Assembly: GCA_964540575.1 (NCBI GenBank)
Contig: CAZINI010000010.1
Location: 42 to 64,041, forward strand
Direction of reading: 5' to 3'
Length of the DNA stretch: 64,000 bases
From: an uncultured Ruminococcus sp.
GTDB taxonomy: Bacteria > Bacillota > Clostridia > Oscillospirales > Ruminococcaceae
Shown: in pieces, positions 23,087 through 62,949 of the stretch
Position numbering within the stretch: position 1 is the stretch's first letter
Layout of the letters: every line of letters starts with the position of its first letter
Notes under the pieces: model-generated
What the model was told of the DNA's origin: nothing
Databases searched by the model: none
The model's input: the letters and a program-made list of their open reading frames with translations, nothing else
Program-made: the position numbers and the translations under genes

Positions 23087-23105
23087 AATTCCCCACCGGG
23101 GAATT
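23087..23105. repeat. palindrome copy P3 (AATTCCCC-ACC-GGGGAATT)
   Basis: Read directly. 5 nt after the stop at 23081 and a 16-nt gap to ATG 23122. Confidence 0.95.
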
Positions 23106-26230: not shown

Positions 26231-26254
26231 GTTATTGTAAGGAAAAAACAAAAC

Positions 26255-26272
26255 ATTCCCCGATGGGGAATT
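26255..26272. repeat. palindrome copy P6 (ATTCCCC-GAT-GGGGAATT)
   Basis: Read directly. Sits in the 5' leader between the promoter at 26202-26230 and ATG 26299. Confidence 0.95.
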
Positions 26273-27455: not shown

Positions 27456-28257
27456 ATGTCAAAAATAATCGCAATAGCAAATCAGAAGGGCGGAGTAGGA
27501 AAGACAACCACCGCCGTAAATCTCGGCACAGCTCTGGAGCTTTCCGGCAGCAAGGTTCTGCTTATCGACCTTGACCCGCAGGCGAATATGTCTGCATATC
27601 TCGGATACGAGGACGATGGGAAGGCTACTATGAGCGACCTTGTAATGACCACAGCAAATAATTTTACTATGGGTGCTCAGAAGCGGACTATGCCCGCTAT
27701 GGACGAATGTATCCGTTACAGCGAAACAAACAAGGTGCATTTTATCCCATCGGACATAGGGCTTGCATATGCAGATGCTTGTATGATGCAGGCAGCAACA
27801 CGGGAGAGTGTACTGAAATTCATCCTGTCAGACAAGGCTGTGCAGGAATATGATTATATAATCATCGATTGTCTGCCATCTCTCGGAATACTGCTCATCA
27901 ATGCCCTAACTGCCGCAGACGGCGTTATCATTCCCGTTCAAACGCAGAAGTTTGCTCTTGACGGATTGGATATGCTCAGTGAGATATATTCACAGGTCAA
28001 GAATACAATAAACAGCAGGATTGATATTGTGGGTGTGCTCGCTACAATGGCGGATAATACAAATATCAGCAGGACAGTCATTGAAAAGCTCACTGACCGT
28101 TACGGCGAGAAAATGTTCGGGACATGCATACATACATAAGTCGGTGGAAGCTGCCAACAGCTCGGAGCGTATGAAATCGCTGTGCCTTAATAAGACAAAG
28201 CTGGGAGAGGAATACAAGGCTCTTGCCGCAGAGGTTAGCAAACGAATGAAGAAATAA
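27456..28257 (+). pseudogene. parA: ParA/Soj-family partition ATPase interrupted by a 1-nt frameshift
   Basis: Deviant Walker A (IANQKGGVGKTTTAVNLG) and DLDPQ. The frame ends FGTCIHT* at 28139, while the missing conserved C-terminus (KSVEAANSSERMKSL...YKALAAEV) continues in the +1 frame to 28257. Deleting one base near 28137 restores a normal ParA. Confidence 0.75.
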
Positions 28258-28274
28258 TTCCCCGGTGGGGAATT
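28256..28274. repeat. palindrome copy P7 (AATTCCCC-GGT-GGGGAATT)
   Basis: Read directly. Overlaps the stop of the parA C-terminal frame, with a 17-nt gap to ATG 28292. Confidence 0.95.
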
Positions 28275-28291: not shown

Positions 28292-29257
28292 ATGAATTTC
28301 GATATAAACAGTATGCTCTCTGCTGCTCCGGCAGCATCGGGAACAACGGCGGTACAGGAACTTCCCGTTGATATGCTTGTACCTTACGGCAGTCACCCGT
28401 TTACGCTTTACACAGGCGAACGTCTGGACGATATGGTGCAGAGCGTCAAGCAGAACGGCATCCTTACGCCTATTCTCGTCCGTGAGCTGGACGGCAGATA
28501 TGAGATTTTGGCGGGACACAACCGTACAAATGCTGCCAAGCTTGCAGGGCTTACAACTGTCCCTGCTATCGTGAAATCAAATCTCAGCGATGAAGAAGCC
28601 GATATGTATGTTATTGAAACCAATCTTATGCAGAGAGGTCTTAAAGAACTGAAAATATCCGAACAGGCAGCGGTAGTTGCTCTCCGTCATTCCAAAATGT
28701 TCGACGAGGATAAGCTTAATGCGATCCGTGAGGAGTTGTCCTCCATTGAAATGGGTACGGAAGAAGTCAAGCAGGACAGCAAGCTTGCAAGGGTAGGTGA
28801 GGAGTATGGGCTGTCGAAGAATACCATAGCACGGCTTATCCGTGTGAATAAGCTACTCACCGCCTGCGATAAATACCGAACAGCGGTAGACACAACGAAG
28901 TTGTCTGTCAGAGCAGCAGTTGAACTGTCATATATCCCATCATCTGCACTTGAAGTGATATTTGAGAGATATAAGGACAGTATTGTCGTTGATGATCTCT
29001 GGGTTGACTCGGTAAAGATCGACCTGAAGCTTGCAGAGCAGCTGAGAGAGCTTTTCAAGAATTTCAGCGGTGGAAAAATGTCTGCGGAGCTTGTCCTTGA
29101 TACTATGCAGAAATGCAGTGCACCGAGAAAGCCCAAAGCCAGAAAACTCAATTCCGATATTTACAGCAAATATTTCGATGAAGATGAAAGCGATGATTAT
29201 GTCAATAGCATAATCGATGAAGCTCTTAAACTGTATTTTCAGAACGAAAAAGATTAA
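28292..29257 (+). CDS. parB: ParB N-terminal-domain (ParB/Srx) protein
   Basis: ILTPILVRELDGRYEILAGHNRTNAAKLAGLTTVPAIV is the ParB-N fold, with GHNR in place of the GERR box. ATG 28292 behind GGAGGAAAA is preferred to the GTG at 28265, which lies inside the palindrome. Confidence 0.7.
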   Translation: MNFDINSMLSAAPAASGTTAVQELPVDMLVPYGSHPFTLYTGERLDDMVQSVKQNGILTPILVRELDGRYEILAGHNRTNAAKLAGLTTVPAIVKSNLSDEEADMYVIETNLMQRGLKELKISEQAAVVALRHSKMFDEDKLNAIREELSSIEMGTEEVKQDSKLARVGEEYGLSKNTIARLIRVNKLLTACDKYRTAVDTTKLSVRAAVELSYIPSSALEVIFERYKDSIVVDDLWVDSVKIDLKLAEQLRELFKNFSGGKMSAELVLDTMQKCSAPRKPKARKLNSDIYSKYFDEDESDDYVNSIIDEALKLYFQNEKD

Positions 29258-41207: not shown

Positions 41208-43742
41208 ATGGCTCATCCTGATAAGAAGAAATATGTTTTGCAAACCGACAGAGCGGCTTACACTCAGAAAAAATATACCGTTAAGCGGACAAAAACACAA
41301 AATTCCCCACCGGGGAATTTTACGAAAGGCACGATAGGCGGAGATATTCCCAAAGGGCAGGGCGATACGAAAAAAAGCGGTACATTACTTAAGAAGATAT
41401 TTAAGGAAAACAGCGATAAGAAAGAAGCTTCGGAACAGACTCAGCATAAAAAAGCCGCATATATCCAAGATAATATTCAGAATGATGCGGCTGCTTCATA
41501 TGCGGAGCAGTATAGTGATACCGCTTTGGAAGAGTCTGTTTCACCGAAAGAAGAGCAGGATCTCTCCACGGGAAAGACGGAAGAAAAGCCGATACATAAT
41601 GCAAAATCGGACAGCATTGTTCCCAATAAAAATGACATATCCTCCGATAAAGCGGAGCAGATGAAAAGGGCGGCATTTATCAAAGCAAAGCTGCAAAAGA
41701 ACATTGCAGCAGCACAGATGAAAAGCACATATTACGAACAAAACGAAGAAGCTTGCGACAGGGTACATTCAGCTTCAAAGAGTAAGGACAATACTCCTTC
41801 ATATGTTGCGTCAAAAATGGAGGGCGTAACAAATGAGAATGCAGCTTCCACCGAAAGACGTTATCTCGGAAACAGCGAAAGCATTTCCGAAAACAAGCAT
41901 AAAAACAGCCTTGATAATGCCGAGGTAAAAAAAGCATATAAGACAAAAATACTCGGAGAACAGCTGAACAGGCGGAGAGCCGCTGCGGATATGTACAGTC
42001 AGGCTAAGACCAATGCTGCCCTTATTTCAGCCGAAAAGGCAAAAGCAGCTGCAATGAAAAATGCGGAAGCAGATGCCAATGTGAGAGATAATGTTATTCC
42101 CGGTGTTGAAAAGGCGGCAGAATATATGTCTGCTGCCAAAGACGGTGATACAGCTAAAATCTTGTCCAAGTCTGCAAAGGATATTCTTAGAAAGCATTTG
42201 AGTGATGGTACAAACCAATTTCTTGATAAAGCCGGTATAGTATCGGGTGCAGTAAAAGAAAGCGATTCTGTCGGCGGAGCAGTGGCAAATGTAGGTGTTT
42301 CGCTGGCAGCAAACGCTATAAAGCAATCTGTAAGCTCTGCATTGAAAAAACCGCTTACAGATAAAAAAATAGAGGAACGGCTTGAAAAAAAGTTCCACTA
42401 TATAGACCGCAAAACCGATAAGCAAATGAGTCGCATCCAAGCTGAAAAACGTGAAGCTATGAACGGGAATATCAGCAAAAGCCTTGAAAAGAAGCTTGAC
42501 AAGATAGAGCGTAATCAAGAAAGATACAAGGAGAAACTCGCAAAACAGCAACAAGAATTACAGCGTAGGCAGCAGAAAAACATTTACATAAAGCACAACA
42601 GAAAAAATCCTGTTTTTGTCGGTGGGAGAGAAAAAGGCGGGACTTTAAGAAAGCTTGTAGGTAAAAAGAGCAGCCTATTGCTTATGGGAGGGGTTGCACC
42701 GATAATAATCATTATTGTGGTCATTGTATTGTTTTTGGCAGTGATTGGATCTGTGTTTGCTCCGATTGGATGGCTAAAAGGATTTCATCATTCCGATGAT
42801 GCACTTAATGACAGCGAAGAACACGAAGTAATGTGCGTTGAATATATGAAATTCAAAAAGCTTGTTACCGATAAAATCAGGGAAATAAACACAGAGATAA
42901 CCTTAGCCTGCGAAAAGGAAATGCAGTTTTATGAAAGTTCCAACGGAAGTGTTAGTGTTACAGCCAGCCCGTTTATTGTTGCGACCGAAAAATTCTGGGA
43001 ATATGATGATGATGATCGCAAACATATAACCGGAGCGTACATTCCATACAAAGGTTCGCATCCAAGCGAATGGAGCAGGAGTGCATATGAAACAATTGAA
43101 TATACAGACGTGAATGGTAACGAAAGAATTATTCCTCTTAAGCTTGCGATCGATGATTTTGATTTTGCCGAATTTTGTGTAAATTTCCAAGTGTGGTCGA
43201 TAAAATCAAAGTATCCCGATGACGATGTGCAGAACCATTCGGGTGAAATTTTCACCTTGAAAGTCGGCAAAATGACAGAGTTTTTCAACCGCACTATAGT
43301 ATGGAATAAGGGTATGTATCCCTTGTATACATATGCAAGAGATATTACGGCAGATGACTATAAAGGTGATGATGAAGCGGCTGAAAATGCTGTTATTGAT
43401 ACATTTAGGGACGTCGGTTATCACGCTTTAACACTCAACTGCCGCTGCATGAATTATCATTACGATAATTGCAAAGGTCATCAGGTCAAATTTTATAATC
43501 TCAATGTAGTACCGTTCGAGGATATATTGGAGGAGGACGGGCTTGAATTGAGCGAAAATGACAGGAAGTTTATAGAGGAGCTTACAAAATCAATGCAAAT
43601 ACTTGACAGTGAGATAGTTCCCGAAGTTATGGCAACCTATACGGGGACGTACTTCGATGAGCCTGAAGAAACGGAGGAGTCGGAAGAGTCGGAAACAACG
43701 GTTAGTTCAGCGGATACAGAGCCAACAGAAACAGGAGGATAA
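41208..43742 (+). CDS. large membrane-anchored T4SS-associated protein (CD1108-like position; no hydrolase motif seen)
   Basis: 844-aa ORF. K/A-rich low-complexity N-terminal half, one TM (VAPIIIIIVVIVLFLAVIGSVF), Cys-containing C-terminal domain, acidic tail. Contains palindrome P8 in frame. Confidence 0.5.
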   Translation: MAHPDKKKYVLQTDRAAYTQKKYTVKRTKTQNSPPGNFTKGTIGGDIPKGQGDTKKSGTLLKKIFKENSDKKEASEQTQHKKAAYIQDNIQNDAAASYAEQYSDTALEESVSPKEEQDLSTGKTEEKPIHNAKSDSIVPNKNDISSDKAEQMKRAAFIKAKLQKNIAAAQMKSTYYEQNEEACDRVHSASKSKDNTPSYVASKMEGVTNENAASTERRYLGNSESISENKHKNSLDNAEVKKAYKTKILGEQLNRRRAAADMYSQAKTNAALISAEKAKAAAMKNAEADANVRDNVIPGVEKAAEYMSAAKDGDTAKILSKSAKDILRKHLSDGTNQFLDKAGIVSGAVKESDSVGGAVANVGVSLAANAIKQSVSSALKKPLTDKKIEERLEKKFHYIDRKTDKQMSRIQAEKREAMNGNISKSLEKKLDKIERNQERYKEKLAKQQQELQRRQQKNIYIKHNRKNPVFVGGREKGGTLRKLVGKKSSLLLMGGVAPIIIIIVVIVLFLAVIGSVFAPIGWLKGFHHSDDALNDSEEHEVMCVEYMKFKKLVTDKIREINTEITLACEKEMQFYESSNGSVSVTASPFIVATEKFWEYDDDDRKHITGAYIPYKGSHPSEWSRSAYETIEYTDVNGNERIIPLKLAIDDFDFAEFCVNFQVWSIKSKYPDDDVQNHSGEIFTLKVGKMTEFFNRTIVWNKGMYPLYTYARDITADDYKGDDEAAENAVIDTFRDVGYHALTLNCRCMNYHYDNCKGHQVKFYNLNVVPFEDILEEDGLELSENDRKFIEELTKSMQILDSEIVPEVMATYTGTYFDEPEETEESEESETTVSSADTEPTETGG
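41301..41319. repeat. palindrome copy P8 (AATTCCCC-ACC-GGGGAATT)
   Basis: Read directly. Translated as NSPPGN at residues about 32-37 of ORF 41208-43742. Confidence 0.95.
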
Positions 43743-44604: not shown

Positions 44605-44710
44605 AAAATCATCTCCAATCAAAAATAAGAAGAATTTGCTTATATATACATTGTACATTAAAATGCTTGCGTTGTCAATACTTTGCAAGCTAATAAGAGA
44701 GGAAAATTTT

Positions 44711-47080
44711 ATGAAACTTATAATCAGTGAAAAGCCGTCCACCGCAAGAACGATAGCTCACGCAGTGGGTGCAAGAGAAAAGATTTACGGTGAGGGAAAA
44801 GAGTATTGCTATAAAGGCAATGACTTTTTCGTTGTAAATGCGAGGGGACACCTTTACGGGCTGGGAATGCCGCAGGACTATGGGTACAGCAAGACTTACA
44901 AAATGGACGAGCTGCCTATGTTCCCCGAATTTGAGCTTTACCCCGAAGGCGAAGATACGGAAAATCTCCGTAATCTCATTGCATCGCTTATAAACCGTCC
45001 CGATGTGGACGAGCTTATCTGTGCGACCGATGCGGGACGTGAGGGAGAGCTTATTTTCCGTCATATTTATAACGCCAACAAATGCACAAAGCCCGTAAAA
45101 CGTCTTTGGACAAACTCAATGACGGACGAAGCTATTACAAAATGTATGGCAAATCTCCCGCCCGACAGCGATTTTGACGGAGAATATTATGCCGCACTTG
45201 CAAGGGAAAAATCCGATTGGATAATCGGAATGAACCTGTCCCGTCTTTATGGTATAAAGGATAACTACACTCACCGTATCGGACGTGTAAAAACTCCCGT
45301 TCTTGCCCTTATCGTTGACCGTGACAACGAGATAGACAGATTTGAAAAGGTGACTACATATCGCCTTGAAATGGAAAACGGTGCGGTATCGGAACAGATA
45401 TATACCTCAAAGGAAGAAGCCGAAAATGCAAGGGATAAATGCAGCGGAAAAGCTGTAAGTGTGCTGTCGGCAGTAATCGATGAGAAGCATATAAACAGAC
45501 CGCTGCTTCACAGCTTGACAACTCTCCAACAGGAAGCAAATAAGGTGTATGGCTTGACTGCAAAGCAGACACTTGAAGCTGCTCAGAGCCTTTATGAGAA
45601 CAAGCTGACGACCTATCCCCGTACCGATTGCAATTACGTTTCCGAGGATATGAGAGAACAACTTATCCGTGTGGTAAGCTGCATCGGAGAACGTTCCGAA
45701 TATGCGGACAGAGTAAACGGGCTGAACGCTGTGGGGCTTAATCTTGACGGCAGAGTTATAAACGACAAGGCAATGAGCGGTCACGATCATCACGCCATTA
45801 TCCCCGAAGCAAGCACAGCAAGCCTTGACAGCCTTTCCGACACGGAACGCAAGGTATACGGTCTTATCGTAAACCGACTGCTTTGTATTGCAGATAAACA
45901 GTATAGCTTCACCGAAACCAACTATACATTCTTTTGCGAAGATATTACATTCAATCTGAAAAAAGAAGTAACAAAAGAAATGGGCTGGAAGCAGTATGAT
46001 ACCGAACTTAAAAAATCGGAAAATTCCCCGGTGGGGAAAAATTCCCCGATGGGGAATTATGTAGAAGGAGAAACTTTCACAGCGGATAACATTTCCGTCA
46101 AGGAATGTGTTACCAAACCGCCCAAGCATTACACAGACGCAAGTTTGCTGTCGGTTATGAACAATATCGACAACAGAATAGACGATAAAGAACTGAAAGC
46201 AGCTGTAAGCGGCAAAGGCATTGGTACCGAAGCTACCAGAGCTGACATTATTGAGCAGCTAATTGCCGCAAAATATGCAGAGCGTAAGGATAAAAACATT
46301 ATTGCCACGGAATTTGGCAGAACCTTTATCGCTTCTATCCCCGATAACGTAAAATCTGTTGAGCGTACTGCGGAATGGGAACAGGTTTTTACCAACATAA
46401 AGGAAAAGGGCATTTCAGCCGAGCCTTTTATGGAAGATATAAAGGAATTTGTCCGTTCTGTCATTTGCTTTGAAAACAGCCCCACACGGCAGAGAACACC
46501 CGTTAATGTTCCCGAAGGCGGCAGTCAGCAGAGAACGGCAATAGGTATTTGCCCCCGATGCGGAAAGAATATTTACGAGGGTAAAATGAATTTCTACTGT
46601 GAAAGCGGCAAGGACGGCTGTGGCTTTACCTTGTGGAAGGAACCTAAATTTTTCAAGGACGTTATTTCTCCCGAAAAGGCTGAAAAGCTCATTGAGGGAA
46701 AAACGGTATCTTTAAAGGCTGAGAGCAAGGACGGAAAAATATATTCTGCCGACTACAAATTGAATGATACGGGAAAGTATGTAAATCTTGAACGTATCAA
46801 GACGGAAAAAGAAGTCATCGGAAAATGTCCGAGGTGCGGAAAGAATGTTTACGAGGGCAAGTTGAATTTCTACTGTGAAAGCGGAAAGGACGGCTGCGGT
46901 TTTGCGATTTGGAAGGAGGACAAGTACAACGGTATAACCGTTACCGCACAGAACGCAAAGGAACTGCTTGAGGGCAAGAGTATTGTCAAGACAAAAAAGA
47001 AATTATCGGGAGAAAACGTTCGTGAGCGTTACAAACTGAAGGATACGGGTAAATATATAAATCTTGAAAAGGAGCAGTAA
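44711..47080 (+). CDS. topB: DNA topoisomerase III with two C-terminal zinc-ribbon repeats
   Basis: Toprim N-terminus (MKLIISEKPS...), DAGREGELIFRH, TTYPRTDC active-site Tyr context, and two copies of CPRCGKN(I/V)YEGK(M/L)NFYCESGKDGCGF. Carries the tandem palindrome in frame. Confidence 0.9.
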   Translation: MKLIISEKPSTARTIAHAVGAREKIYGEGKEYCYKGNDFFVVNARGHLYGLGMPQDYGYSKTYKMDELPMFPEFELYPEGEDTENLRNLIASLINRPDVDELICATDAGREGELIFRHIYNANKCTKPVKRLWTNSMTDEAITKCMANLPPDSDFDGEYYAALAREKSDWIIGMNLSRLYGIKDNYTHRIGRVKTPVLALIVDRDNEIDRFEKVTTYRLEMENGAVSEQIYTSKEEAENARDKCSGKAVSVLSAVIDEKHINRPLLHSLTTLQQEANKVYGLTAKQTLEAAQSLYENKLTTYPRTDCNYVSEDMREQLIRVVSCIGERSEYADRVNGLNAVGLNLDGRVINDKAMSGHDHHAIIPEASTASLDSLSDTERKVYGLIVNRLLCIADKQYSFTETNYTFFCEDITFNLKKEVTKEMGWKQYDTELKKSENSPVGKNSPMGNYVEGETFTADNISVKECVTKPPKHYTDASLLSVMNNIDNRIDDKELKAAVSGKGIGTEATRADIIEQLIAAKYAERKDKNIIATEFGRTFIASIPDNVKSVERTAEWEQVFTNIKEKGISAEPFMEDIKEFVRSVICFENSPTRQRTPVNVPEGGSQQRTAIGICPRCGKNIYEGKMNFYCESGKDGCGFTLWKEPKFFKDVISPEKAEKLIEGKTVSLKAESKDGKIYSADYKLNDTGKYVNLERIKTEKEVIGKCPRCGKNVYEGKLNFYCESGKDGCGFAIWKEDKYNGITVTAQNAKELLEGKSIVKTKKKLSGENVRERYKLKDTGKYINLEKEQ
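46022..46058. repeat. palindrome copy P9 (tandem: AATTCCCC-GGT-GGGGAA + AATTCCCC-GAT-GGGGAATT)
   Basis: Read directly. In frame in topB as NSPVGKNSPMGN. The 43-nt block 46019-46061 is identical to 59494-59536. Confidence 0.95.
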
Positions 47081-48804: not shown

Positions 48805-48823
48805 AATTCCCCGGTGGGGAATT
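48805..48823. repeat. palindrome copy P10 (AATTCCCC-GGT-GGGGAATT)
   Basis: Read directly. Begins immediately after the stop at 48804, with an 18-nt gap to ATG 48842. Confidence 0.95.
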
Positions 48824-50728: not shown

Positions 50729-50732
50729 GAAT

Positions 50733-50768: not shown

Positions 50769-50784
50769 GAAAGGACTGATTGTT

Positions 50785-52483: not shown

Positions 52484-52771
52484 ATGAATAAATGCTTTTT
52501 ACAGGGAGTGATCTCAAAAGCTCCCGTACAAACAGGCGATAATGTATTTGGCAGATTTGTTTTCACCATCATTCCGAATGGCAAAACTGAGGAAATCGAA
52601 GCTGTCGCTTGGACTTACAGAGGTTTCGGCAAACGCTACAAGTCTGGGGATAAGGTCGTTGTTATAGGCGAGAAACGCACCCGAAAAATACCCACCGACA
52701 ACGGCGTAAAATGTGTGCCGATAGTAGTTGTGGACAGCATTACGGCAAACAAGGAGGAGCATAACGTATGA
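52484..52771 (+). CDS. OB-fold, SSB-like small protein (tentative)
   Basis: 95-aa ORF behind AAAGGAGAA. The pattern CFLQGVISKAPV...FGRFVFTI...EIEAVAWTYRGFGKRYKSGDKVVVIGEKR resembles an SSB OB-fold. Confidence 0.4.
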   Translation: MNKCFLQGVISKAPVQTGDNVFGRFVFTIIPNGKTEEIEAVAWTYRGFGKRYKSGDKVVVIGEKRTRKIPTDNGVKCVPIVVVDSITANKEEHNV

Positions 52772-55700
52772 CCGAATATATAAACAAGGAATTTTACAAG
52801 GAAATACCCGCTGATGAACGTCACTACATTAACCTTTCCGCAAGCAATATAAGTGCGGTTATGGACAGGCTGAACGCCGAGGGTATTCCTTTTTCGGCTA
52901 CTCTTAATAACTACAAAAATGTTATCACCGTAAGAAAATCCGACAGTGAGAGGGCTAATGCTATTGTAAGCGAGCTTACTCCAAAGAAAAGCTCCGACAT
53001 TCGCATTATCGGGAACACAGACTATCGTTACATTTCCGACAAGCGGTATATAAATATGGACTCAGACACGGCGTTAAAGGTTGCAGCTATACTGTCGGGA
53101 GATAGCAACAGCCGTTTTTCGGGACGTATTGTCGGCGATAAGGCTACTATTACCGTAAGCGGTGACAAAAATGCCGTAAATGTTCGCAGAATTGCTGACA
53201 ATATAAAGAATGCCGACCTGCTTTCCGAGCTTGACAAAGCGGGCTTTGAACGTGTGAACATTGATAACGGTTTTGTTAATTTCCGCAACAGATATACGGG
53301 AAATATTGAGGGCTTTGATAGCCTTGATATGGTACGGGAAATGTTTGAGGATAAAGACAATGAATTTTTCCACCCGACCGCATACCGTATCGCACTGTCC
53401 TCAGATGCATATGAGGACGAATACTATATTTCCTGTTATGACAATACCACAGGAGAGGAAAAAGAGCCGTATTTTGACAACAATGGTGCGGTTACATATA
53501 TGCCTACATTCAGAACTGTTGATGCAGCTCTTGATTATGCTGTATCGGAGAATATAACACTCAGCAATTCAAATGATGAGCTTGAAAAGTGGAGAGCAGC
53601 GGAAGCCGAACGTGACAACGAGCAGATAGCCGAAGAAAACAGAAGTCTTATTGCCGATTTTCCTATGCAAGACGGACTTTATCCCGACCAGTTCAGATAT
53701 AATCCCGATGATAACAGCTTTATGTGGACATATTTCAATCCCGATGGTGACAACGGTCGGGGAATATTTGTCGAGAAGCATATTTCCGAGCAGGATATAT
53801 ATGCTGCACATACTGCTATGATTTCAGCGGAAAATGAAGCCGAGGGGCAAAGTGCTTTTATCAATTACATTTTGGAAAACTGCCGTGAAGCAGTTATTGA
53901 TACTTACAGCGGATATTTTGAGGGGTATGCGAACGACTATATCAACAAACCCGAAGCTGTTGTTGAGTATTACGGTATCGGTGCAAACAACAGTCATATC
54001 GAGGACATAACTGCACTTATTTCCCGTATGGAGGACTGCTGTGCCAAGATAAAAAAAGAACAGCTTGAAGCAGCTGCTCTAACCGATGAAACGGAAAAAT
54101 TATCCGATCAGCTTGTTGAAATAACGGACGGTATTGTAAAAAGTCAGGAAGAATTTACTGAGTGCATAAGTACGGGAAACTATGAGGGTGCATCGGCTGC
54201 CGCTTCCAAGCTTGCCGAACTGAGCCGCAGGGCAGAGCAGATAAAGGCGATGATACAGGCAGAAGCTATTACAACAGATGATGTCGATGTGCTGCGGAAT
54301 ATAAAGCCCGAAAGGAAATCCGTGCAGAATATGCTTGAAACCGAGGTTGCTCAGACACCAAAGTTTGAAAAGCTTCTTGGCGAGGAATTCGGGGAGAAGT
54401 CTGCCTATGTGATGAGAAACAGTGATAATGAGTGGAGAAATGACGAGTCAAAAACGGCGGTCGTTGTTGAGGTTCAGAAGCGGGATATTCCCGTTCACCC
54501 GGCGGAGCTTCAAAGGAAAGGCAACGATATTCCCAGAGGAATTTTTGTTAATCGAGATACCGGTATTGAAATACAATTTAGCAGACGTTCCATTGAGGAA
54601 ATAGTTGCAAAAGCTATACATGATGACAAGAGAGATACTCCTGTTGAAGCACGAATGGCTGCTCTTTATCAGATGCAGGATTTAATTGAAAATGCAATTT
54701 GTTTTGATAGTCAGCTATCCGAACCAAGTAATTCAAAAAAATCGGACAGTACTTTGTTTATCCATAGAATGTACGGATTAATAATCTACGATAATGAACA
54801 ATACCTGGCGAATTTGGCTATTGAGGAAACATATTCGACTGATAGAGAGAACCGATTTAGGGATACCAATAATCGACTGTATTCTTTTAGAGATATAAAA
54901 ATAACACCAACGAAGCTATTGGGCGGTCAAGCCCACGCAGACTTGCAAAATGCAAGCGAGGATACTTCGTTAGGTGTTACTACAATAAGTATACCACAGC
55001 TTTATGATATTGTCAAGACCAATGACCAAAGATTTTTTGAAAATCCATCAGCCCCGGGACGTGCCGACAGAGAAGCCGAGATAAAGGCACAGTCTGAGTA
55101 TCGGAATGCTGTTGAGAAATATAACGCATATATTCTGACCGCCGACAGCGAAGAAATAGAAATTGACGGTCAGGAAGGTACTTGGTATGTTATCGATACG
55201 CAGACCATAGGCGGCAAAGAACTTTTTCTTTTGGAAAGCGAGATATACGGTGATGAAGCTGCCTGCCTTATCGTTGACGGAAACAGAAATATCGTTATGG
55301 ATAATGTTTATAACGGCTTTGAGGATTATATTGAAGAAAATGCCGTTCCCGACGAGCAGATTATAATATCCGGCGAAGTCGCTTCGGAAATGTGGTATTA
55401 CGGCTTTGACGTTTATGTAAATGGGGAAAAACTTGATAAATTTGATGATGTTTCCGATAAAAGCGGGATGTTCGGGAGGCTGGAGGATAAGGAAAATAGC
55501 ATATCCGCAGCTGTTAATGACGTTACCCTTTACCACAATGCCGAAGCTATTGCAAGTGCTGTTTTTGATATATCCAAAAAGTATTATAATGCTCCGAAAA
55601 GTGCAGGAACGCCGTATTATCTCAATCTTGAAAAATATCACGAGGATAATGATTGGGAGAATTGGCGTAAAGATGAAAACGAGTATGCCAACACAATGTT

Positions 55701-58700
55701 TGCACTTCTGGAGAGAAGCTATCCTTCGGTTGAAAATTACCTGATAAATGTAGTAAGTGACAGCAAGAACAGGGAAGATATGGCAGAGGACAGAGAAGCT
55801 GCACTAAAGGCTTTGCAGACCATTGAAGTGTTTAAGATTGGAATGGAAGAATTTCGTCCTATACATTTTGAACCTGTTGAGGAAACAAGCTATGCAGAGC
55901 AGCTTTATACAAGAGTAAATGACGAATACAGCTATTTTATCGGTCAGATAAAAAATGAAAGCCCTGATGTGCTTGTTCGTTCGGCTGCGGAAATAGCGGA
56001 TAAGGAAAAGATTACACAGTATATTATGGAGGGGACTGTTTCTCTTTTAGATAAACAGTATGAAGCTTTGCTGTCAAGACCAAATCCGCTTGATGAAATT
56101 TATGAGCAGTGGGTGCAAAACGGCGAACTGAGCAGCTTTGAAGATGTTGGTATCGCACTTGAAGAAGCAGCCGACCGTATTCTTGTTTCCCTTGACCGTG
56201 AAAACTCACGTTCCGAGGAAAAGGTCAATGCCGTACTTGCAGTTTCGCAGAATGATACTAGCAGATATTATGCTGCAAATAATGTTTCCGTTGATGATGT
56301 GAGAGAAGTTATTAAACACTCAGATATGCTGTTTATCGACCTTTGTGCACTTGGTGAAAAGCAGATAACGGAAGCTCAGTTTGCGGAGTATTCACAGAGA
56401 AACGGTGTTACTGCTGTTGATGTGGATATTGACGAGCAGACTATGCACGTTTACGGTGCGGATAAGCCTATTATTTCATTTGATGAAATAAAGGTGGATT
56501 TTGATGAAATAGCAAAGGCACTTGACCTTAAAAACAACACTATTACATTTTCTGTTGTTGCCATTGAAGGAGAAAAGCCCTTTATTATTGGCAGTTATAT
56601 CGACAAGGACGATATTACCGCACTCGAAGAATATCAGGATTATATCTATGATACGGGAAGAAAGAATATTGATGTTACCGTTGATTATTATACGATAGGT
56701 ATGGGAGATAATGAGTCGTATGGTGCCGATACCGATGAAAGGGACTATATTTTCGAACACCTTGATGAAGTGCTGAAATATAAATATACCGATCACCTTG
56801 AATCGGAAACATATTTTATTGCGACTCCCGCAGAACTGCTGGAAGAAATCAGCGGCGAAGCAGAAGAAAAGAACTATTTATTCACTGTTGCAGAATTTGA
56901 GGACGGCAGCAGATATGTTATCCCCGGTAAAATCGATGATAATAACATTAAGGAAACGGCAGCTTGGACGGAAGTTAAGAACAACAATTTTGACGTTGAC
57001 CGTATTACAGATCTTGACGAAGATATACGGGTGACATATACGGTATATCAGACAGGCAGCGGAGAAACCGTTTTGCCGACAGACGAGGAAACAGCAAGGA
57101 TCGAAGCTGCTCTTGATGAAATCTTATCCGATGCGGTTATGGTGACTTCTTTTGATTCATCTGTACGTCCTTGGGAAGATGTTGATGATGTCATTTTCAA
57201 AATGGAAGAAGTATGGAAAGAACGTCACGCAAAGGAAATGAATGTTTCCGATGGTTTTGACAACAGTAATTTCCTTTATCCCAATAATCTGATGAAAATC
57301 GCACACGACAGCGAGGGAAAAGACCATTATAATTTCGACGACGATGCTATCTTGCAGATAAAGCTTGCAGGAAGTGAATGGCTGCACCCTGTTGACGCTG
57401 CTGTTGAAATGAACCGCAGAGGTGTTGACATTAATGACATTGAAATGCTAAATGTGCGATATGTTTCCTCCGATGGTACTGTCGGAGAAAAGGATGTAAC
57501 TCCCGAACAATATATAGTTTACCTTGCTCACAGCGAAGAACGAACAAATGCTTTTCTGGCTGCGGTCGATGCAGCAGAGGAGCGGAAAAAGGTTCCCGAA
57601 GCAATGATGAATATCATTTATGATGATATGCCGTCATTTGTCAAGAGTGCTGTTGCTTGGGACGAGCTTATGGAATATGACGGTATATCGGAACAATTTG
57701 ATAAGGGTGAAGATCCCGTTGCGGTGGTAAAGCCTTATCTTGCAAATAATGGCACATTCTCTTGGAACGCAGATGAGCTGAAAAACGGATATTTTGATTG
57801 GTCTGTAAAGGATAATGGTGATACGGCAGATATTTCAATTTCCGTAAATGACAGCGACACGTTCAGAGAGAAGTATAATTCTCATTTTGAAGTGCCTTGG
57901 ACTGAACTTGCAGACGCATTTAAAAAGCGAATAGATCAGGAGATAAACTACAATAAAATCTCTGACGGAACGATTACTGTAACTGCCGTAGGTGAGGATA
58001 GGTTCAGATTTGTTGACAGAAGCAGAAATACGGAAGCGATTGAAAGCCGTGAACAGTTGATTGAACGTTTTACAGAAATGTTCAATAAAGCTGATTTGAA
58101 CGGTATCATTAGGTCTGTTATTGAGGAAGCTAAATTTGAAAAGATTGAAGTTGATAATAATTCCCCGGTGGGGAATTTGGACGGCGATGAGGAAAAGCAG
58201 ATAATTGACCTTTCCAAACTTTCAAAAATCACTCTTAATGATGAATATGAACGTGGAACGGATCAGCCCGATGATTTCCAATACATAAAAAATACTATCA
58301 CATTCAGCGACCTTAATTCGTCATTTCTTATACGCAGAAACAAGGAATTTACATATGACTATGATGTTCTGCCCGACCTTGACGAGGGTGATACATTCAT
58401 CACAAGACAGGGTATGCTAAAAGAAGTGCGGGATTTTCTGGAAGCAGCAAAAAGCGATTCGGATAAATCCATTTCCATTACCGATATGAACGGTAATACT
58501 ACTGTTCTGAAAGGCAGTCAATACGTCTTTGAAGCAACAGAGGACAGGCTTGCATTTATGATACCCGAGGTTGGCTATGCGGAAATGTTTGAACGTGATG
58601 ATGACAGCTATGATTACACGATTTATGACAGCGATTTCAAAGTTACAGACAGCGGAGTTTACGATGACGTAAGCATTACTCTACGTCAGGCATTTACTAT

Positions 58701-61700
58701 TATTTTAGAAGATGCAGGGTATGATATTGACAGATGCGAGCCTATGGATTTTGAAGAACTGCACAGCCGAATAGATGAAAAGTCTGAAAAGGCTATCAAA
58801 AACGGAACGCACATTAGTCCCAAAGAAAGAGCCGAGCAGGATAATACGCCAAAATATGAGATATACCAGATACCCGCAGGCGAACGCTATCACGATATTC
58901 GCTTTACAAGCTATGACCTTTTGGAAAAATGGGGACAGCTGCCCGATCGTCTTAATTATGAAAAGGTGTACAGCGGCAGGCTTGATGATATTGAATATGA
59001 TAATAAGCCGGAGGGCATATTCATCAAATTCAATACCGAACGTCCCGAAGATTTTGCGGGGCATTCTCTGAGCACTTCCGACGTTATTGTTATCGAGGAC
59101 GAAAAGGGTAAATCTGCGTATTTCGTTGACGATGTTGGATTTAGGGACATTACAGATATTTTCCTTGAACTTGACCGTGCACAGAACAAACCTCTTGAGG
59201 AGGAAAATTCCATAGAAAATGAAGCGGAGTACTTAAATACTGTCGAATTAGAATGGAAGGCATTGCCCGAATCTATTGACGAAGAAACAGGCAAGCCATC
59301 AATTTGGTCAACTGAGATAAATTCCGAAAGATATGGGAGATATTTATGGATAAGTAAGAATGAAAATAATACATATGATGTCGAGTATGATGCAGGCGAC
59401 AGAATTATTCCCGTATCATCGGAAAGTATCGGATTTTATTCATTGTCTGCTGCCAAAGATTGGGTTGATTATGAATTAGCTGACCCCGAAAAAGAAAATT
59501 CCCCGGTGGGGAAAAATTCCCCGATGGGGAATTATGAAAACGCCAATAGCTATGAACCGAAAATCGGTGACTTTATCGAGTATCAGGATAAACTTTTTAA
59601 AGTTGCAGACGTTGGCAGCGGAACTGTTACCTTGCAGACCGCAGACACTCTTATCCCCGAAACAACGGTGGTATCTGTTACCGACCTTATTACAAGCGAC
59701 AGTCTGACCGTTATCGAGGAAAACGGAAAGCCTGCTCACATTACGCAAACAGTAGCCGAGCAGCCTGCCGAGAATAATCCAAAATCACGGAATTTTGTTA
59801 TCACAGACGAGAATTTTGGTGTTTCGGGCGGTGCAAAAACGAGATATGCGGACAATGTTGCAGCTATTAAAACGTTGAAAGCGATCGAAGCGGAAAACCG
59901 CACGGCTACCCCCGAAGAACAGCAGATATTGTCAAAATACACGGGCTGGGGAGCAATACCGCAGGCATTTGACATTAACAATGACAAGTGGCGTACAGAG
60001 TATGCGGAACTCCGCACTTTGCTCACACCCGAAGAATACGCTGCTGCCAGAAGGTCAACGATGAACGCACACTACACCTCTCCCACAGTTATTTCGGCAA
60101 TTTATGAGGGACTGAAAAATCTCGGATTTGAAGGTGGAAAAATCCTTGAGCCTGCTGTCGGAATAGGAAACTTTTTTGGAGCAATGCCCGAGGAAATGCG
60201 TAACAGCAAGCTGTTCGGCGTTGAGCTGGACAGTCTTACGGGACGTATTGCACAGCAGCTTTATCCCGAAGCTGATATTCAGATAAAGGGCTTTGAGCAG
60301 ACAGCATTTGCGGACAACAGCTTTGATGTTGCTATCGGCAATGTGCCTTTTGGCGATTACAAGCTGAATGACCGCCGATACAATGAAAACAATTTCCTGA
60401 TTCACGACTACTTTTTCGCAAAGGCTTTGGACAAAGTTCACCCCGGCGGCGTTGTTGCATTTGTGACTTCAAAGGGTACGCTTGACAAGGAAAATCCCGA
60501 AGTCAGAAAGTACATTGCACAGAGAGCGGAACTGCTGGGTGCAATACGTCTGCCTAACAATGCTTTCAAGGCAAATGCAGGCACGGAAGTTACTTCCGAC
60601 ATAATCTTTTTGCAGAAGAGAGAACGTCCGATTGAAATCAATCCCGATGAGGTGGAATGGCTGAAAAAGGCTGAAACTCCCGATGGTTTTTCCGTGAATA
60701 ATTACTTTGTGCAGCACCCTGAAATGGTGCTTGGCACAATTGCAGAAGCGAAGCATATTTACGAACCGACCGAAAACACTCAGGTACTTCCAATTGAGGG
60801 AGCAGACCTTAAACAGCAGCTTTCGGAAGCAATGAGGAATATTCAAGGAAAGTATAGAGCTTCGGAAAAAGAAACAGCTCTTCAGAATGTGGACGAAATC
60901 CCAGCTCCGGCTAATTCCCGAAAGTACAGTTTTTATGCTGTTGACGGAAATCTCTATTACAGAGAAGCCGGGGACACTATGAAAAAGGTGAACGTGTCGA
61001 AAGATACACTTAGCCGTGCGATAGGTATGATAGAGCTTCGTGATAATGTTCGTGAACTGCTTGATTTACAGCTGAATAATGCGGACGGCAGTCTTGACTT
61101 TGATATTTCCGAAAGCAGAAAAAAGCTGAATAATGCCTATGACAGCTTTGTTGCTAAGTATGGCAATGTAAGCGATAAGAAAAATGCAAAGGCAATGCAG
61201 GGCGATGACGGCTACAATATCGTTTCTGCTCTTGAAGTTAAGGACGAAAAGGGCAATGTTACGGGCAAAGCGGACATTTTTACTCAGAACACCGTAAAGC
61301 CTAAAATCATTGCGACACACGTTGATACTGCCGAGGAAGCACTTATTCTATCTGTTGCCGAAAAAGCAAAGGTGGATTTTGAGTATATGACAGAACTTTG
61401 CGGTATGGATAAAAATACTCTTATTTCCGAATTGTCGGGACAGATATACCGTCTGCCGCAGGAAAAAGAAAAATATGTGACCGCAGACGAGTATCTTACG
61501 GGAAATATCCGCAAGAAGCTCCGTGAGCTGGAGAATGTACCCGAGGGTATGGACGTTTCCGAGAACAGAAAGGCACTTGAAGCGGCTATGCCACCGAGAG
61601 TTGAAGCAAAGGATATTTCCGTAAAGCTGGGTGCACATTGGATAGACCCTAAATATATCGAGGATTTCATAAAAGAAAAATTCAATCCCGATTATGATAC

Positions 61701-62949
61701 AAGGAGAAATATGAGTGTGCAGTACAGTGCAGTTGCGGGAACGTGGAAAATCGAAGATGTAAAGCCATCTGCGAAGAAAAACTATTATTGTACACATACA
61801 TACGGAACTCAAAGAATGCACGCATATGCGATACTCGAAGCTATCCTTAACAACGGCGATATACAAGTAAAAGACCGTGTTAAGGACGAATACGGCAATG
61901 ATATGCGGGATATGAACGGCAAGTATATCCTTGTAGTCAATGACGAGGAAACAAAAGCAGCCCGCCGATGTGCTAATGTGATTAAGGCGGAATTTGAGGA
62001 TTGGATATTCAGAGATCCCGACCGCCGTGAAGCATTGGTGCAGAAGTACAATGAGGTGTACAATTCTATCCGTCACAGAGAATATGACGGTTCTCATTTG
62101 AGTTTTGTGGGTATGAACACGGGTATTACTCTTAAGGAACACCAGAAAAACGCTGTTGCAAGAGGACTTTACGGAGGAAATTGCTTGCTTGCTCACGCCG
62201 TTGGTGCAGGAAAGACGTATGAGATGATAGCGATCGCAATGGAGGGCAAGAGGCTTGGTTTGCATAACAAGTGCTTGTTTGCTGTTCCCAATGCGTTGAC
62301 CGAGCAGATCGGCAATGATTTCCGCAAGCTGTATCCAAATGCACATATCCTTGTGGCAACACAGAAGGATTTTGAAAGAGAAAATAGGTTGCAGCTTTTG
62401 GGAAAAATAGCAGCAAACGATTGGGATGCGGTTATTGTGGGACATTCGCAGTTTGACCGTATGGGCTTATCTCCCGAAAGAGAAAGAGCTTACCTTGTTG
62501 CAGAGGTCAACAAACTGCGACGTGAACTTGAAATGGCTGCTGCCGAGAGCGGCGGAAAAAAGAGCTTTACCGTTAAGCAGATAGAAAAATCTCTTGCAAG
62601 CTATGAGGACAAGCTGGCGAAGTTGAGTGATGCACAGGTCAAGGACGGTTTTATCGACTTTGAGCAGCTGGGCTTTGACAAGATTTTCGTGGACGAAAGT
62701 CATATGTACAAAAATCTCGCAACGGCAACGAAAATGCACAATGTGTCGGGTCTTGGAAGTCAGGGTTCGGCTAGAGCATTTAATCTGTTGATGAAATCAA
62801 GGTATCTTGATGAGCTTACCGGGGGAAGGGGCTTAACTTTCGCCAGTGGAACGCCCATAATCACAGGGTATCTACGGTCAGAAATGCCGATTTTACGTTG
62901 TTTAAAGCAAATGAGCATCACGGACGAAAGTGATGCTCATTTTTTATAA
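52768..62949 (+). CDS. giant polyvalent protein (at least 3393 aa): N-terminal modules + N6-adenine DNA methyltransferase + SNF2/DEAD helicase N-lobe; 3' part replaced
   Basis: One uninterrupted ORF with an ATGA start overlap. MTase motif I ILEPAVGIGNFFG (about 60143) and motif IV GNVPFGDY (about 60338). Helicase Walker A AHAVGAGKTYEM (about 62190) and DEAH-type VDESHMYKN (about 62689). Family-like sequence stops after FASGTPI (about 62859). The last about 30 codons are unrelated and end in a terminator hairpin, and no helicase C-lobe is present. Confidence 0.85.
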   Translation: MTEYINKEFYKEIPADERHYINLSASNISAVMDRLNAEGIPFSATLNNYKNVITVRKSDSERANAIVSELTPKKSSDIRIIGNTDYRYISDKRYINMDSDTALKVAAILSGDSNSRFSGRIVGDKATITVSGDKNAVNVRRIADNIKNADLLSELDKAGFERVNIDNGFVNFRNRYTGNIEGFDSLDMVREMFEDKDNEFFHPTAYRIALSSDAYEDEYYISCYDNTTGEEKEPYFDNNGAVTYMPTFRTVDAALDYAVSENITLSNSNDELEKWRAAEAERDNEQIAEENRSLIADFPMQDGLYPDQFRYNPDDNSFMWTYFNPDGDNGRGIFVEKHISEQDIYAAHTAMISAENEAEGQSAFINYILENCREAVIDTYSGYFEGYANDYINKPEAVVEYYGIGANNSHIEDITALISRMEDCCAKIKKEQLEAAALTDETEKLSDQLVEITDGIVKSQEEFTECISTGNYEGASAAASKLAELSRRAEQIKAMIQAEAITTDDVDVLRNIKPERKSVQNMLETEVAQTPKFEKLLGEEFGEKSAYVMRNSDNEWRNDESKTAVVVEVQKRDIPVHPAELQRKGNDIPRGIFVNRDTGIEIQFSRRSIEEIVAKAIHDDKRDTPVEARMAALYQMQDLIENAICFDSQLSEPSNSKKSDSTLFIHRMYGLIIYDNEQYLANLAIEETYSTDRENRFRDTNNRLYSFRDIKITPTKLLGGQAHADLQNASEDTSLGVTTISIPQLYDIVKTNDQRFFENPSAPGRADREAEIKAQSEYRNAVEKYNAYILTADSEEIEIDGQEGTWYVIDTQTIGGKELFLLESEIYGDEAACLIVDGNRNIVMDNVYNGFEDYIEENAVPDEQIIISGEVASEMWYYGFDVYVNGEKLDKFDDVSDKSGMFGRLEDKENSISAAVNDVTLYHNAEAIASAVFDISKKYYNAPKSAGTPYYLNLEKYHEDNDWENWRKDENEYANTMFALLERSYPSVENYLINVVSDSKNREDMAEDREAALKALQTIEVFKIGMEEFRPIHFEPVEETSYAEQLYTRVNDEYSYFIGQIKNESPDVLVRSAAEIADKEKITQYIMEGTVSLLDKQYEALLSRPNPLDEIYEQWVQNGELSSFEDVGIALEEAADRILVSLDRENSRSEEKVNAVLAVSQNDTSRYYAANNVSVDDVREVIKHSDMLFIDLCALGEKQITEAQFAEYSQRNGVTAVDVDIDEQTMHVYGADKPIISFDEIKVDFDEIAKALDLKNNTITFSVVAIEGEKPFIIGSYIDKDDITALEEYQDYIYDTGRKNIDVTVDYYTIGMGDNESYGADTDERDYIFEHLDEVLKYKYTDHLESETYFIATPAELLEEISGEAEEKNYLFTVAEFEDGSRYVIPGKIDDNNIKETAAWTEVKNNNFDVDRITDLDEDIRVTYTVYQTGSGETVLPTDEETARIEAALDEILSDAVMVTSFDSSVRPWEDVDDVIFKMEEVWKERHAKEMNVSDGFDNSNFLYPNNLMKIAHDSEGKDHYNFDDDAILQIKLAGSEWLHPVDAAVEMNRRGVDINDIEMLNVRYVSSDGTVGEKDVTPEQYIVYLAHSEERTNAFLAAVDAAEERKKVPEAMMNIIYDDMPSFVKSAVAWDELMEYDGISEQFDKGEDPVAVVKPYLANNGTFSWNADELKNGYFDWSVKDNGDTADISISVNDSDTFREKYNSHFEVPWTELADAFKKRIDQEINYNKISDGTITVTAVGEDRFRFVDRSRNTEAIESREQLIERFTEMFNKADLNGIIRSVIEEAKFEKIEVDNNSPVGNLDGDEEKQIIDLSKLSKITLNDEYERGTDQPDDFQYIKNTITFSDLNSSFLIRRNKEFTYDYDVLPDLDEGDTFITRQGMLKEVRDFLEAAKSDSDKSISITDMNGNTTVLKGSQYVFEATEDRLAFMIPEVGYAEMFERDDDSYDYTIYDSDFKVTDSGVYDDVSITLRQAFTIILEDAGYDIDRCEPMDFEELHSRIDEKSEKAIKNGTHISPKERAEQDNTPKYEIYQIPAGERYHDIRFTSYDLLEKWGQLPDRLNYEKVYSGRLDDIEYDNKPEGIFIKFNTERPEDFAGHSLSTSDVIVIEDEKGKSAYFVDDVGFRDITDIFLELDRAQNKPLEEENSIENEAEYLNTVELEWKALPESIDEETGKPSIWSTEINSERYGRYLWISKNENNTYDVEYDAGDRIIPVSSESIGFYSLSAAKDWVDYELADPEKENSPVGKNSPMGNYENANSYEPKIGDFIEYQDKLFKVADVGSGTVTLQTADTLIPETTVVSVTDLITSDSLTVIEENGKPAHITQTVAEQPAENNPKSRNFVITDENFGVSGGAKTRYADNVAAIKTLKAIEAENRTATPEEQQILSKYTGWGAIPQAFDINNDKWRTEYAELRTLLTPEEYAAARRSTMNAHYTSPTVISAIYEGLKNLGFEGGKILEPAVGIGNFFGAMPEEMRNSKLFGVELDSLTGRIAQQLYPEADIQIKGFEQTAFADNSFDVAIGNVPFGDYKLNDRRYNENNFLIHDYFFAKALDKVHPGGVVAFVTSKGTLDKENPEVRKYIAQRAELLGAIRLPNNAFKANAGTEVTSDIIFLQKRERPIEINPDEVEWLKKAETPDGFSVNNYFVQHPEMVLGTIAEAKHIYEPTENTQVLPIEGADLKQQLSEAMRNIQGKYRASEKETALQNVDEIPAPANSRKYSFYAVDGNLYYREAGDTMKKVNVSKDTLSRAIGMIELRDNVRELLDLQLNNADGSLDFDISESRKKLNNAYDSFVAKYGNVSDKKNAKAMQGDDGYNIVSALEVKDEKGNVTGKADIFTQNTVKPKIIATHVDTAEEALILSVAEKAKVDFEYMTELCGMDKNTLISELSGQIYRLPQEKEKYVTADEYLTGNIRKKLRELENVPEGMDVSENRKALEAAMPPRVEAKDISVKLGAHWIDPKYIEDFIKEKFNPDYDTRRNMSVQYSAVAGTWKIEDVKPSAKKNYYCTHTYGTQRMHAYAILEAILNNGDIQVKDRVKDEYGNDMRDMNGKYILVVNDEETKAARRCANVIKAEFEDWIFRDPDRREALVQKYNEVYNSIRHREYDGSHLSFVGMNTGITLKEHQKNAVARGLYGGNCLLAHAVGAGKTYEMIAIAMEGKRLGLHNKCLFAVPNALTEQIGNDFRKLYPNAHILVATQKDFERENRLQLLGKIAANDWDAVIVGHSQFDRMGLSPERERAYLVAEVNKLRRELEMAAAESGGKKSFTVKQIEKSLASYEDKLAKLSDAQVKDGFIDFEQLGFDKIFVDESHMYKNLATATKMHNVSGLGSQGSARAFNLLMKSRYLDELTGGRGLTFASGTPIITGYLRSEMPILRCLKQMSITDESDAHFL
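58159..58177. repeat. palindrome copy P12 (AATTCCCC-GGT-GGGGAATT)
   Basis: Read directly. In frame in the giant ORF as NSPVGN. Confidence 0.95.
59497..59533. repeat. palindrome copy P13 (tandem, identical to P9)
   Basis: Read directly. In frame as NSPVGKNSPMGN, about 260 nt upstream of the start of the methyltransferase module. Confidence 0.95.
59791..60630 (+). other. N6-adenine DNA methyltransferase module of the giant ORF
   Basis: NFVITDENFGVSGGAKTRY ... ILEPAVGIGNFF ... FDVAIGNVPFGDYKL ... DIIFLQKRERP. Confidence 0.8.
62095..62859 (+). other. SNF2/DEAD helicase N-terminal lobe of the giant ORF (C-lobe missing)
   Basis: LKEHQKNAV ... GAGKTYEM ... VDESHMYKN ... FASGTPI, then loss of family-like sequence. 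Confidence 0.75.
62911..62945 (+). terminator. hairpin + T-run at the end of the truncated giant ORF
   Basis: ATGAGCATCAC / GTGATGCTCAT stem followed by TTTTT. Confidence 0.65.

Follow-up and report, generated by a model that had tools for sequence, protein, structure and literature searches.

The 64,000-nucleotide (nt) stretch of DNA analysed here, hereafter the window, comes from an uncultured Ruminococcus sp. (assembly GCA_964540575.1, contig CAZINI010000010.1) and holds an integrative conjugative element (ICE) of Clostridial type that has inserted behind guaA. Two genes of this ICE, the topoisomerase gene topB and a giant polyvalent open reading frame (ORF), carry an identical 43-nt block, and the ICE also encodes a ParB-type protein of its own, for which the block probably provides two adjacent sites. 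The features concerned are as follows.

44711..47080, + strand: topB, type IA topoisomerase, 789 amino acids from its true ATG start at 44711
46019..46061, + strand: tandem palindrome in topB, centres GGT and GAT, encoding ENSPVGKNSPMGNY
52768..62949, + strand: giant polyvalent ORF, 3393 amino acids, with LPD3/16/18, YodL, methylase and helicase domains
59494..59536, + strand: tandem palindrome in the giant polyvalent ORF, identical to the topB block
27456..28139, + strand: parA, a deviant Walker ATPase with matches to AAA_31, CbiA and ParA
28292..29257, + strand: parB, of the ParB/Noc/KorB type, the proposed trans factor

Exactly two copies of the 43-mer GAAAATTCCCCGGTGGGGAAAAATTCCCCGATGGGGAATTATG are present, at 46019-46061 in topB and at 59494-59536 in the giant ORF, on the + strand in both cases; no further match with ≤3 mismatches was found in the window, and none in 100 shuffles. 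Both copies are read in frame and give the same peptide, which occupies residues 437-450 of TopB (numbered from the true start), in a variable loop preceding the conserved segment KPPKHYTD, and residues 2243-2256 of the giant ORF, in the linker that joins the YodL domain to the Eco57I-like methylase domain. The flanks of the two copies are unrelated to each other. A sequence-only reading of the window had described this identity, the shared peptide, the unrelated flanks and the position in the TopB loop, and had taken the block for a feature of the DNA rather than a product of convergent protein evolution; our analysis is in accordance with it on all of these points. That reading had also allowed for a collapsed-repeat assembly artefact. 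This is unlikely, because a single read is longer than the repeat, each copy is flanked in frame by unique sequence, and a tandem pair stands at the same topB position in the independent assemblies of the relatives L001 and L046.

Each block consists of two abutting units of a 19-bp palindrome with an 18-bp period (in topB the centres lie at 46031 and 46049), and these units belong to a larger family. The pattern TTCCCC-NNN-GGGGAA was found in 15 copies at 13 loci, all of them within 10576-59531 and within the ICE (30 strand-matches against 1.08 expected), and a scan for 9-1-9 dyads with ≤1 mismatch returned 11 sites in the window against 0.3 in shuffles. From 104 distinct copies in relatives we derived the 19-bp consensus AATTCCCC-R-N-T-GGGGAATT (R = A/G), which as a 9-1-9 dyad reads AATTCCCCA-N-TGGGGAATT, the centre alone being free. 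Positions -9, -8 and -1, which the search pattern left unfixed, showed A at 0.74, A at 0.87 and A/G at 0.87/0.12, respectively, and the information content stops at +/-9 of the site centre. Written out, the candidate ParB site of the window type is AATTCCCCANTGGGGAATT, AATTCCCCAGTGGGGAATT. Apart from the two tandem blocks, the family occupies the following loci, to which no strand is assigned.

10574..10592: palindrome, centre ATT, overlapping the last codons (FPNGE and stop) of ORF 10573-11145 (- strand), 4 nt ahead of the ribosome-binding site of the integrase gene
21741..21759: palindrome, centre AGT, within the final 18 codons of ORF 20828-21799, just ahead of the next gene's ribosome-binding site
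23087..23105: palindrome, centre ACC, intergenic, 8 nt past a stop codon
24005..24023: palindrome, centre ACC, intergenic
25151..25169: palindrome, centre GGT, intergenic, starting at the end of a promoter-like TTGACG-17-TATAAT (25125-25153)
26254..26272: palindrome, centre GAT, intergenic, 26 nt downstream of a promoter-like TTGCAA-17-TATAAT (26202-26230)
28256..28274: palindrome, centre GGT (at 28265), between parA and parB, about 27 nt ahead of the parB ATG at 28292, with the same position in L122
41301..41319: palindrome, centre ACC, coding, in ORF 41208-43742, read NSPPGN; the orthologous copy in L001 has GGT
48805..48823: palindrome, centre GGT, intergenic, 3 nt past a stop codon, with an orthologous copy in L001
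50733..50769: palindrome pair, a full copy (GGT) and a decayed second unit (TTCCCCGTTGGAAAT) with an 18-bp period, between a GGDEF-like gene and the primase gene; the third tandem of the window, half-degenerate
58159..58177: palindrome, centre GGT, at residues ~1798-1803 of the giant ORF, read NSPVGN, with positional orthologues in L023, L030 and L080

The centres of seven of the 13 loci fall outside ORFs, against a non-coding share of 11.6% of the ICE DNA (p = 3e-4), and two more loci lie in the last codons of ORFs. Six loci are clustered around parA and parB, within 6.5 kb (21.7-28.3 kb). The reading frame of the confident coding copies is NSPxGN (with [MLV] at x) in about 29 cases, FPxGE in 5 and IPxWGI in 0. 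Promoter-like hexamers adjoin two of the palindromes, those at 25151..25169 and 26254..26272; promoter overlap as a general rule was dropped, since promoter-like matches are not enriched overall (25 against 22.9 in shuffles). A restriction-modification or methylase target was considered as well, but restriction sites are normally avoided, not enriched, and the motif is 19 bp long. A loop inversion to explain the ACC centre at 41301..41319 and its GGT counterpart in L001 was also dropped, as the gene is only 48% identical and three substitutions suffice.

The ParB of the ICE has the features expected of a binder of such sites. It matches the Pfam family ParB_N (expectation value, E, 1e-19); a PDB sequence search returned Noc/Spo0J/ParB at 3e-15 and KorB at 7e-6; and a Foldseek search with its predicted model (predicted local distance difference test 81.7) aligned ParB/Noc/KorB structures over 240-260 columns, covering both the N-terminal and the DNA-binding domain. 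The N-terminal domain, which resembles those of cytidine triphosphatases (CTPases), carries the motifs GHNR and ETNxxQR, and GHNR and E-x-N-x-x-Q-R do not vary among 39 homologues. The helix-turn-helix (HTH), GEEYGLSKNTIARLIRVNKL, spans helices 165-173 and 177-192. A plasmid collection searched with ParB yielded no annotated close relative, the best match being 36% identical. The ICE thus combines what is characteristic of ParB-parS and KorB-operator systems, namely a dyad site, a CTPase-type ParB with an HTH, an adjacent ParA and a site at the par operon. From the conserved motifs, and by analogy with ParB/KorB clamps, we infer that this ParB may bind cytidine triphosphate (CTP) and may load onto DNA and slide along it as a clamp.

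A metagenome scan with the ParB alignment gave 80 ParB-centred loci, which were sorted by palindrome type. The types, named by their half-sites, are listed below with the first residues of the ParB recognition helix.

TTCCCC: the window type; helix start SKNT, residues 176-179 of the window ParB
TTCGCC: one base off TTCCCC, with sites AATTCGCC; helix start [KG]KDS
TGCCCC: AACTTCTGCCCCA-N-TGGGGCAGAAGTT, arranged 13-1-13; helix start SRN[ST]
TGTTCC: as in L121; helix start SASS
GAATCC: one site inside parB; helix start SKGSVV
AGACCC: one site inside parB; helix start GR[ST]TVV
CGGACC: one site inside parB; helix start SGRNVA
GGACAG-C-CTGTCC: the sole type without the core CCA-N-TGG that is common to all the others

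The palindrome type tracks the first residues of the recognition helix and does not follow the ParB tree built outside the HTH. L138 (TTCGCC) falls inside the TTCCCC group on the non-HTH tree, at 53% identity to the window ParB; L187/190/193 (TTCCCC, SKNT) form an outgroup in the non-HTH comparison, at 44% identity; and L152 (TGCCCC) is 67-70% identical outside the HTH to ParBs of the GAATCC type. Because these cases contradict the ParB tree, the covariation between helix and palindrome is not simply phylogeny. Every palindrome type also has a copy beside or inside parB, either 16-38 nt from one of the parB ends or within the coding sequence, where the sites of the GAATCC, AGACCC and CGGACC types lie at about nt 470-500. 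In L143, L147-L171, L176, L177, L179 and L189-L192 a single palindrome was observed in the parB linker before the HTH (TLNPVGSKL and variants), and its position is kept while its sequence changes with the lineage. Most types other than TTCCCC and TTCGCC have only the parB-linked copy, and the many-site state of the window lineage is therefore an expansion.

Further relatives carry palindromes of their own. In L119 the palindrome is CAGTCCCCAcCGGGGACTG, and in L121, whose TopB is 65% identical, ATGTTCC-RNT-GGAACAT is present six times in 22 kb. Two ATGTTCC-type sites of L121 (22217-22271) stand 39 bp apart in a giant ORF; close pairs thus occur in another type, at a different spacing. We also scanned reference genomes with the TTCCCC pattern and used as a control for the centre triplets those matches, about two thirds of the ones listed, that are single chance matches in unrelated phyla. 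Among the matches listed, the palindrome appears in many genome bins of Ruminococcus, Oscillospiraceae and other Clostridia, always in relatives of the window ICE and in up to 6 copies per 8 kb, whereas in other phyla the matches are single and have random centres. A search of viral contigs for tandem pairs gave no matches. Within the window lineage (the window, L001 and L046), 18 of 21 copies have an asymmetric centre, G-N-T or A-N-C with GGT/ACC preferred, against 9 of 84 elsewhere (p = 6e-11). The recognition helix of this lineage is identical to that of L123-type relatives despite this preference, for which concerted evolution or a determinant of specificity beyond the helix could be responsible.

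Taken together, these results suggest, with a probability that we put at roughly 0.7, that the 43-nt block represents two adjacent putative sites, parS-like or KorB-operator-like, of the ICE's own ParB (28292-29257). The best reading of the palindromes as a whole, judged from comparative sequence data, is that they are under strong constraint as ParB sites. We infer that ParB would physically bind them, behave as a CTP clamp and serve in partition and/or silencing. A ParB dimer would use its HTH to read each half-site and, once the site is recognised, would load onto the DNA in the manner of CTP-dependent ParB/KorB clamps. The six loci around parAB might then form a centromere-like array, and the remaining ones would lie upstream of operons, or in coding sequence where long genes leave no intergenic room. 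Within genes, selection would retain the DNA site, read in the frame that does least harm (N-S-P-x-G-N) and placed in loops and in linkers between domains.

Several observations weigh against this interpretation. The number of independent lineages behind the covariation is limited, and the same pattern could come from a different DNA-binding protein inherited together with ParB. The palindrome is also hairpin-forming (DNA folding energy -6.7 kcal/mol per unit and -12.9 kcal/mol for the block), and ICE DNA is single-stranded during transfer. ParB binding by itself does not account for the GGT/ACC centre preference with an unchanged recognition helix, for the expansion to 13 loci when most relatives of other palindrome types have one site per 20 kb, or for the tandem arrangement at an 18-bp period.

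We consider two alternatives improbable. In the first, the palindromes are operators of another DNA-binding protein co-inherited with the ICE, for example a cI-like HTH_3 protein (11211-11555) acting as a multi-site repressor of the stoperator type. The element indeed encodes several DNA binders, and there are sites directly downstream of promoter-like hexamers and upstream of operons. However, sites are anchored in or beside parB in every lineage examined, and it is the recognition helix of ParB that tracks the palindrome type against the ParB tree; this comparison covered ParB, the other candidate binders lying beyond the fetched flanks. Stoperators are moreover asymmetric and oriented, unlike the symmetric palindromes found here. 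The Rep_3 initiator was rejected as the binder, as it has iterons of its own at 12813-12973.

In the second, the palindromes act as hairpins in RNA or in the transferred strand, being terminators or stabilisers, or else sites of priming or of exclusion of single-stranded DNA-binding protein for the ICE primase. They do form stable stem-loops, many copies lie just past stop codons, and A-rich sequence on their 5' side gives them the look of terminators on the minus strand (16 terminator-like sites where 7.0 are expected); the element also has a gene for a DUF3991-Toprim primase and is transferred in single-stranded form. On the other hand, the symmetry reaches -1/+1 around a single free base, positions that would be unable to pair in a hairpin, and all copies share one exact stem sequence instead of varied stems with compensatory changes. 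The near-miss copies are likewise uncompensated, with 17 single mismatches and only 1 compensated double change. Both centre orientations are found on the coding strand, the sense strand lacks a T-run after most copies, the terminator-like matches are antisense only, and Rfam gave no family match on the whole window. The covariation of the palindrome type with an HTH that binds double-stranded DNA also speaks for ParB sites rather than hairpins.

Comparison with relatives bears on the age of the sites. We compared TopB with its best 120 homologous proteins and also compared the DNA of relatives, and found two, one or no palindrome units at the same loop. The TopB of P0002 (87% identical) reads ENSPMGKNSPVGNY, those of P0009, P0010, P0013 and P0090 (73-76%) have one unit, NSP[VM]GN[YF], and those of P0003-P0008 (77-85%) have none. 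The loop has equal length with one unit or none (NSPMGNY against NADVPKY), and a second unit adds 18 nt (6 codons). A 39-nt (13-codon) indel, by which the sequence-only reading had proposed to recognise an insertion, is absent among these homologues, and no target-site duplication, another mark it named, was seen at the borders of the two 43-nt copies. In L120 a different palindrome, the perfect CGTGTCCCAcTGGGACACG, occupies the same topB loop (peptide RVPLGHE).

Positional orthologues were found beyond the TopB loop. Both giant-ORF sites have single-unit counterparts in L023, L030 and L080, and in the giant ORF of L080 the stretch matching the first unit is of the same length and differs only in a 12-nt patch; giant ORFs carry 2-4 palindrome copies each. 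The sites at 41303 and 48807 are orthologous in L001. The sites in topB, in ORF 41208, at 48807 and at both giant-ORF positions are thus kept in place while their flanks diverge, across relatives at 63-87% protein identity. Because single units are length-neutral and have positional orthologues in relatives, the palindrome positions are old and orthologous. A search with the giant-ORF segment gave 17 matches, none close enough to date conversion, and in the closest of them the NSPxGN peptide is absent or degenerate (QSPVGT).

What remains to be explained is the exact identity of the two pairs. The two-site consensus fixes about 32 of the 43 positions, and the identity is therefore much weaker evidence of recency than its length implies. 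The centres are more informative. The pair at the orthologous topB position has GAT, GGT in L001 and AAT, GGT in L046, and the GGT, GAT of the window differ from both but equal those of its giant-ORF pair, which makes sequence exchange between the two loci likely; the asymmetric centre shared by 18 of 21 copies in this lineage points the same way. It is most likely that the exact 43-nt identity reflects gene conversion between two tandem sites. The topB pair would probably have arisen by duplication of one 18-nt unit (+18 nt), and short-patch gene conversion between pre-existing sites may then have made the giant-ORF and topB pairs identical, in a direction that is uncertain. The sequence-only reading had ascribed the identity to recent copying of DNA; exchange between loci survives from this view, a transposition-like insertion is unsupported, and the case for recency from 43 identical bases is much weakened.

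It is very unlikely that no copying occurred at all and that each gene separately evolved two optimal sites, identical through constraint alone. The number of positions fixed by the consensus would suit such convergence, and both loci already had the ancestral single unit, followed by TAT/TAC. However, about 10 less constrained positions match as well (both centres, the AAA spacer and the flanking G..ATG), for which a rough estimate based on family frequencies gives a chance of 1e-4 to 1e-5, and the agreement of the topB centres with the paralogous instead of the orthologous pairs is also unexpected under convergence. As for a recent in-frame insertion, into topB and the giant ORF, of a miniature mobile palindromic element resembling a miniature inverted-repeat transposable element or one of the palindromic elements of Rickettsia, the identical 43-mers with unrelated flanks in two genes, the many family copies and the lineage-wide homogeneity of the centre might suggest one, but this reading is largely refuted and highly improbable, given the missing indel and target-site duplication, a single unit that replaces a loop of equal length and a second that adds 18 nt, the L080 stretch of unchanged length, a unit of just 19 bp with no information beyond its ends, the orthologous positions across relatives, the different palindrome in the topB loop of L120, and scans, covering only some ORFs, in which no candidate transposase of the kind that mobilises repetitive extragenic palindromic elements turned up; the block is not a jumping element.

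The remainder of the ICE contains the following genes.

9454-10566, - strand: integrase
13077-14135: Rep_3 initiator, with iterons at 12813-12973
15874-17736: NikA-like protein and relaxase
between ParB and TopB: type IV secretion genes, several ORFs
50725-51996: ORF of the DUF3991-Toprim primase, start uncertain

The iterons upstream of the Rep_3 gene are seven direct repeats of 22-23 nt (GGAAATTRCTCCTCACCTTT), which together with Rep_3 make an iteron-type plasmid origin within an integrated conjugative element. Between ORFs 29315-30526 and 30864-31724, at 30727-30794, there are six or seven 10-nt tandem units (ACATTCAGAT / ACATTCAGTA), which could be another protein-binding array. Behind the full-length guaA (5938-7512) stands a second guaA copy, which is partial (7675-8652). 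Over their 57-nt 3' ends (7458-7514 and 8598-8654) the two show 77% identity, and each terminates in GAGTGGGAATAATT; the element probably left this duplication when it integrated into the 3' end of guaA. On the - strand, between the transfer genes and topB (44058-44610), two small ORFs that overlap each other resemble a toxin-antitoxin pair, and the equivalent place in L119 holds an HTH_3 protein and a Gp49/HigB-like protein.

In the literature we found no description of this ICE palindrome. If ParB binds the sites, the system would be a Gram-positive ICE counterpart of the KorB network of RK2. The conserved NSPxGN peptides in TopB and the polyvalent proteins would then be the trace that a DNA-binding site leaves in proteins, a case of protein sequence shaped by a cis element; the pairs of palindrome and recognition helix would make a natural data set on the switching of ParB specificity, and possibly a source of orthogonal ParB/parS pairs for DNA labelling. 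More tentatively, we propose that this Clostridial ICE family might use ParB at about a dozen dispersed sites, many of them coding, as a KorB-like silencer or organiser of the whole element and not just at a centromere, with at least seven orthogonal specificities reached through few recognition-helix changes and with sites kept uniform by gene conversion. The palindrome offers a simple marker with which to find and type these ICEs in gut metagenomes, and the case illustrates that long exact repeats between genes can arise mostly from site constraint and short conversion, without a mobile element.

Among known systems, Rickettsia palindromic elements resemble the present family in being palindromic DNA in frame in unrelated genes, with a tolerated peptide in surface loops. 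They are about 100-150 bp long and are clear insertions relative to orthologues, and we know of no trans factor for them; the units described here are 19 bp long, positionally conserved and of the same length as the loops without them, and they covary with a DNA-binding protein. The stoperators of cluster A mycobacteriophages, of which there are about 20-30 copies, mostly in short intergenic gaps, are similar as a short specific site repeated through a mobile genome with lineage-specific variants, which co-evolve with the protein that binds them. A stoperator lacks symmetry, is oriented with transcription and has the immunity repressor as its binder, in contrast to the symmetric, ParB-linked sites found here with both centre orientations. 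Uptake signal sequences and DNA uptake sequences (USS/DUS) likewise are selected DNA motifs that genes accommodate by favouring reading frames with a tolerated peptide product; they are genome-wide and serve transformation, whereas the present sites are restricted to a single mobile element and linked to ParB.

The parS centromeres of Spo0J/ParB are closer. They share palindromic sites clustered near parAB, a ParA partner and the normality of intragenic sites. The site inside parB of several relatives resembles the parS of Bacillus subtilis located within spo0J. In Pseudomonas aeruginosa, 9 of 10 parS sites lie in coding sequence (PMC4368675). The present sites differ in consensus, with at least seven specificity types within one ICE family, and are dispersed over ~50 kb of a mobile element instead of forming one cluster.

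KorB and its operator OB on the IncP plasmid RK2 provide a further parallel. The KorB operator is a short palindrome with one free central base in a 6-1-6 arrangement. There are differences: the host here is Gram-positive (Clostridia) and the ICE integrated, the site measures 19 bp and reaches 27 bp in relatives, intragenic copies are numerous and tandem pairs occur, no KorA-like partner was identified, none having been searched for, and in sequence the ParB is distantly related to KorB (E 7e-6), with a function that is putative. In both cases, however, a ParB-family protein with a CTPase-type N-terminal domain and an HTH is encoded on a conjugative element, and a short palindrome with a free central base recurs at about a dozen scattered places, some beside promoters (here promoter-like hexamers) and others far from any. 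KorB is a CTP-dependent clamp and has 12 binding sites on RK2 (PMC11790492), a number close to the 13 loci of the window.

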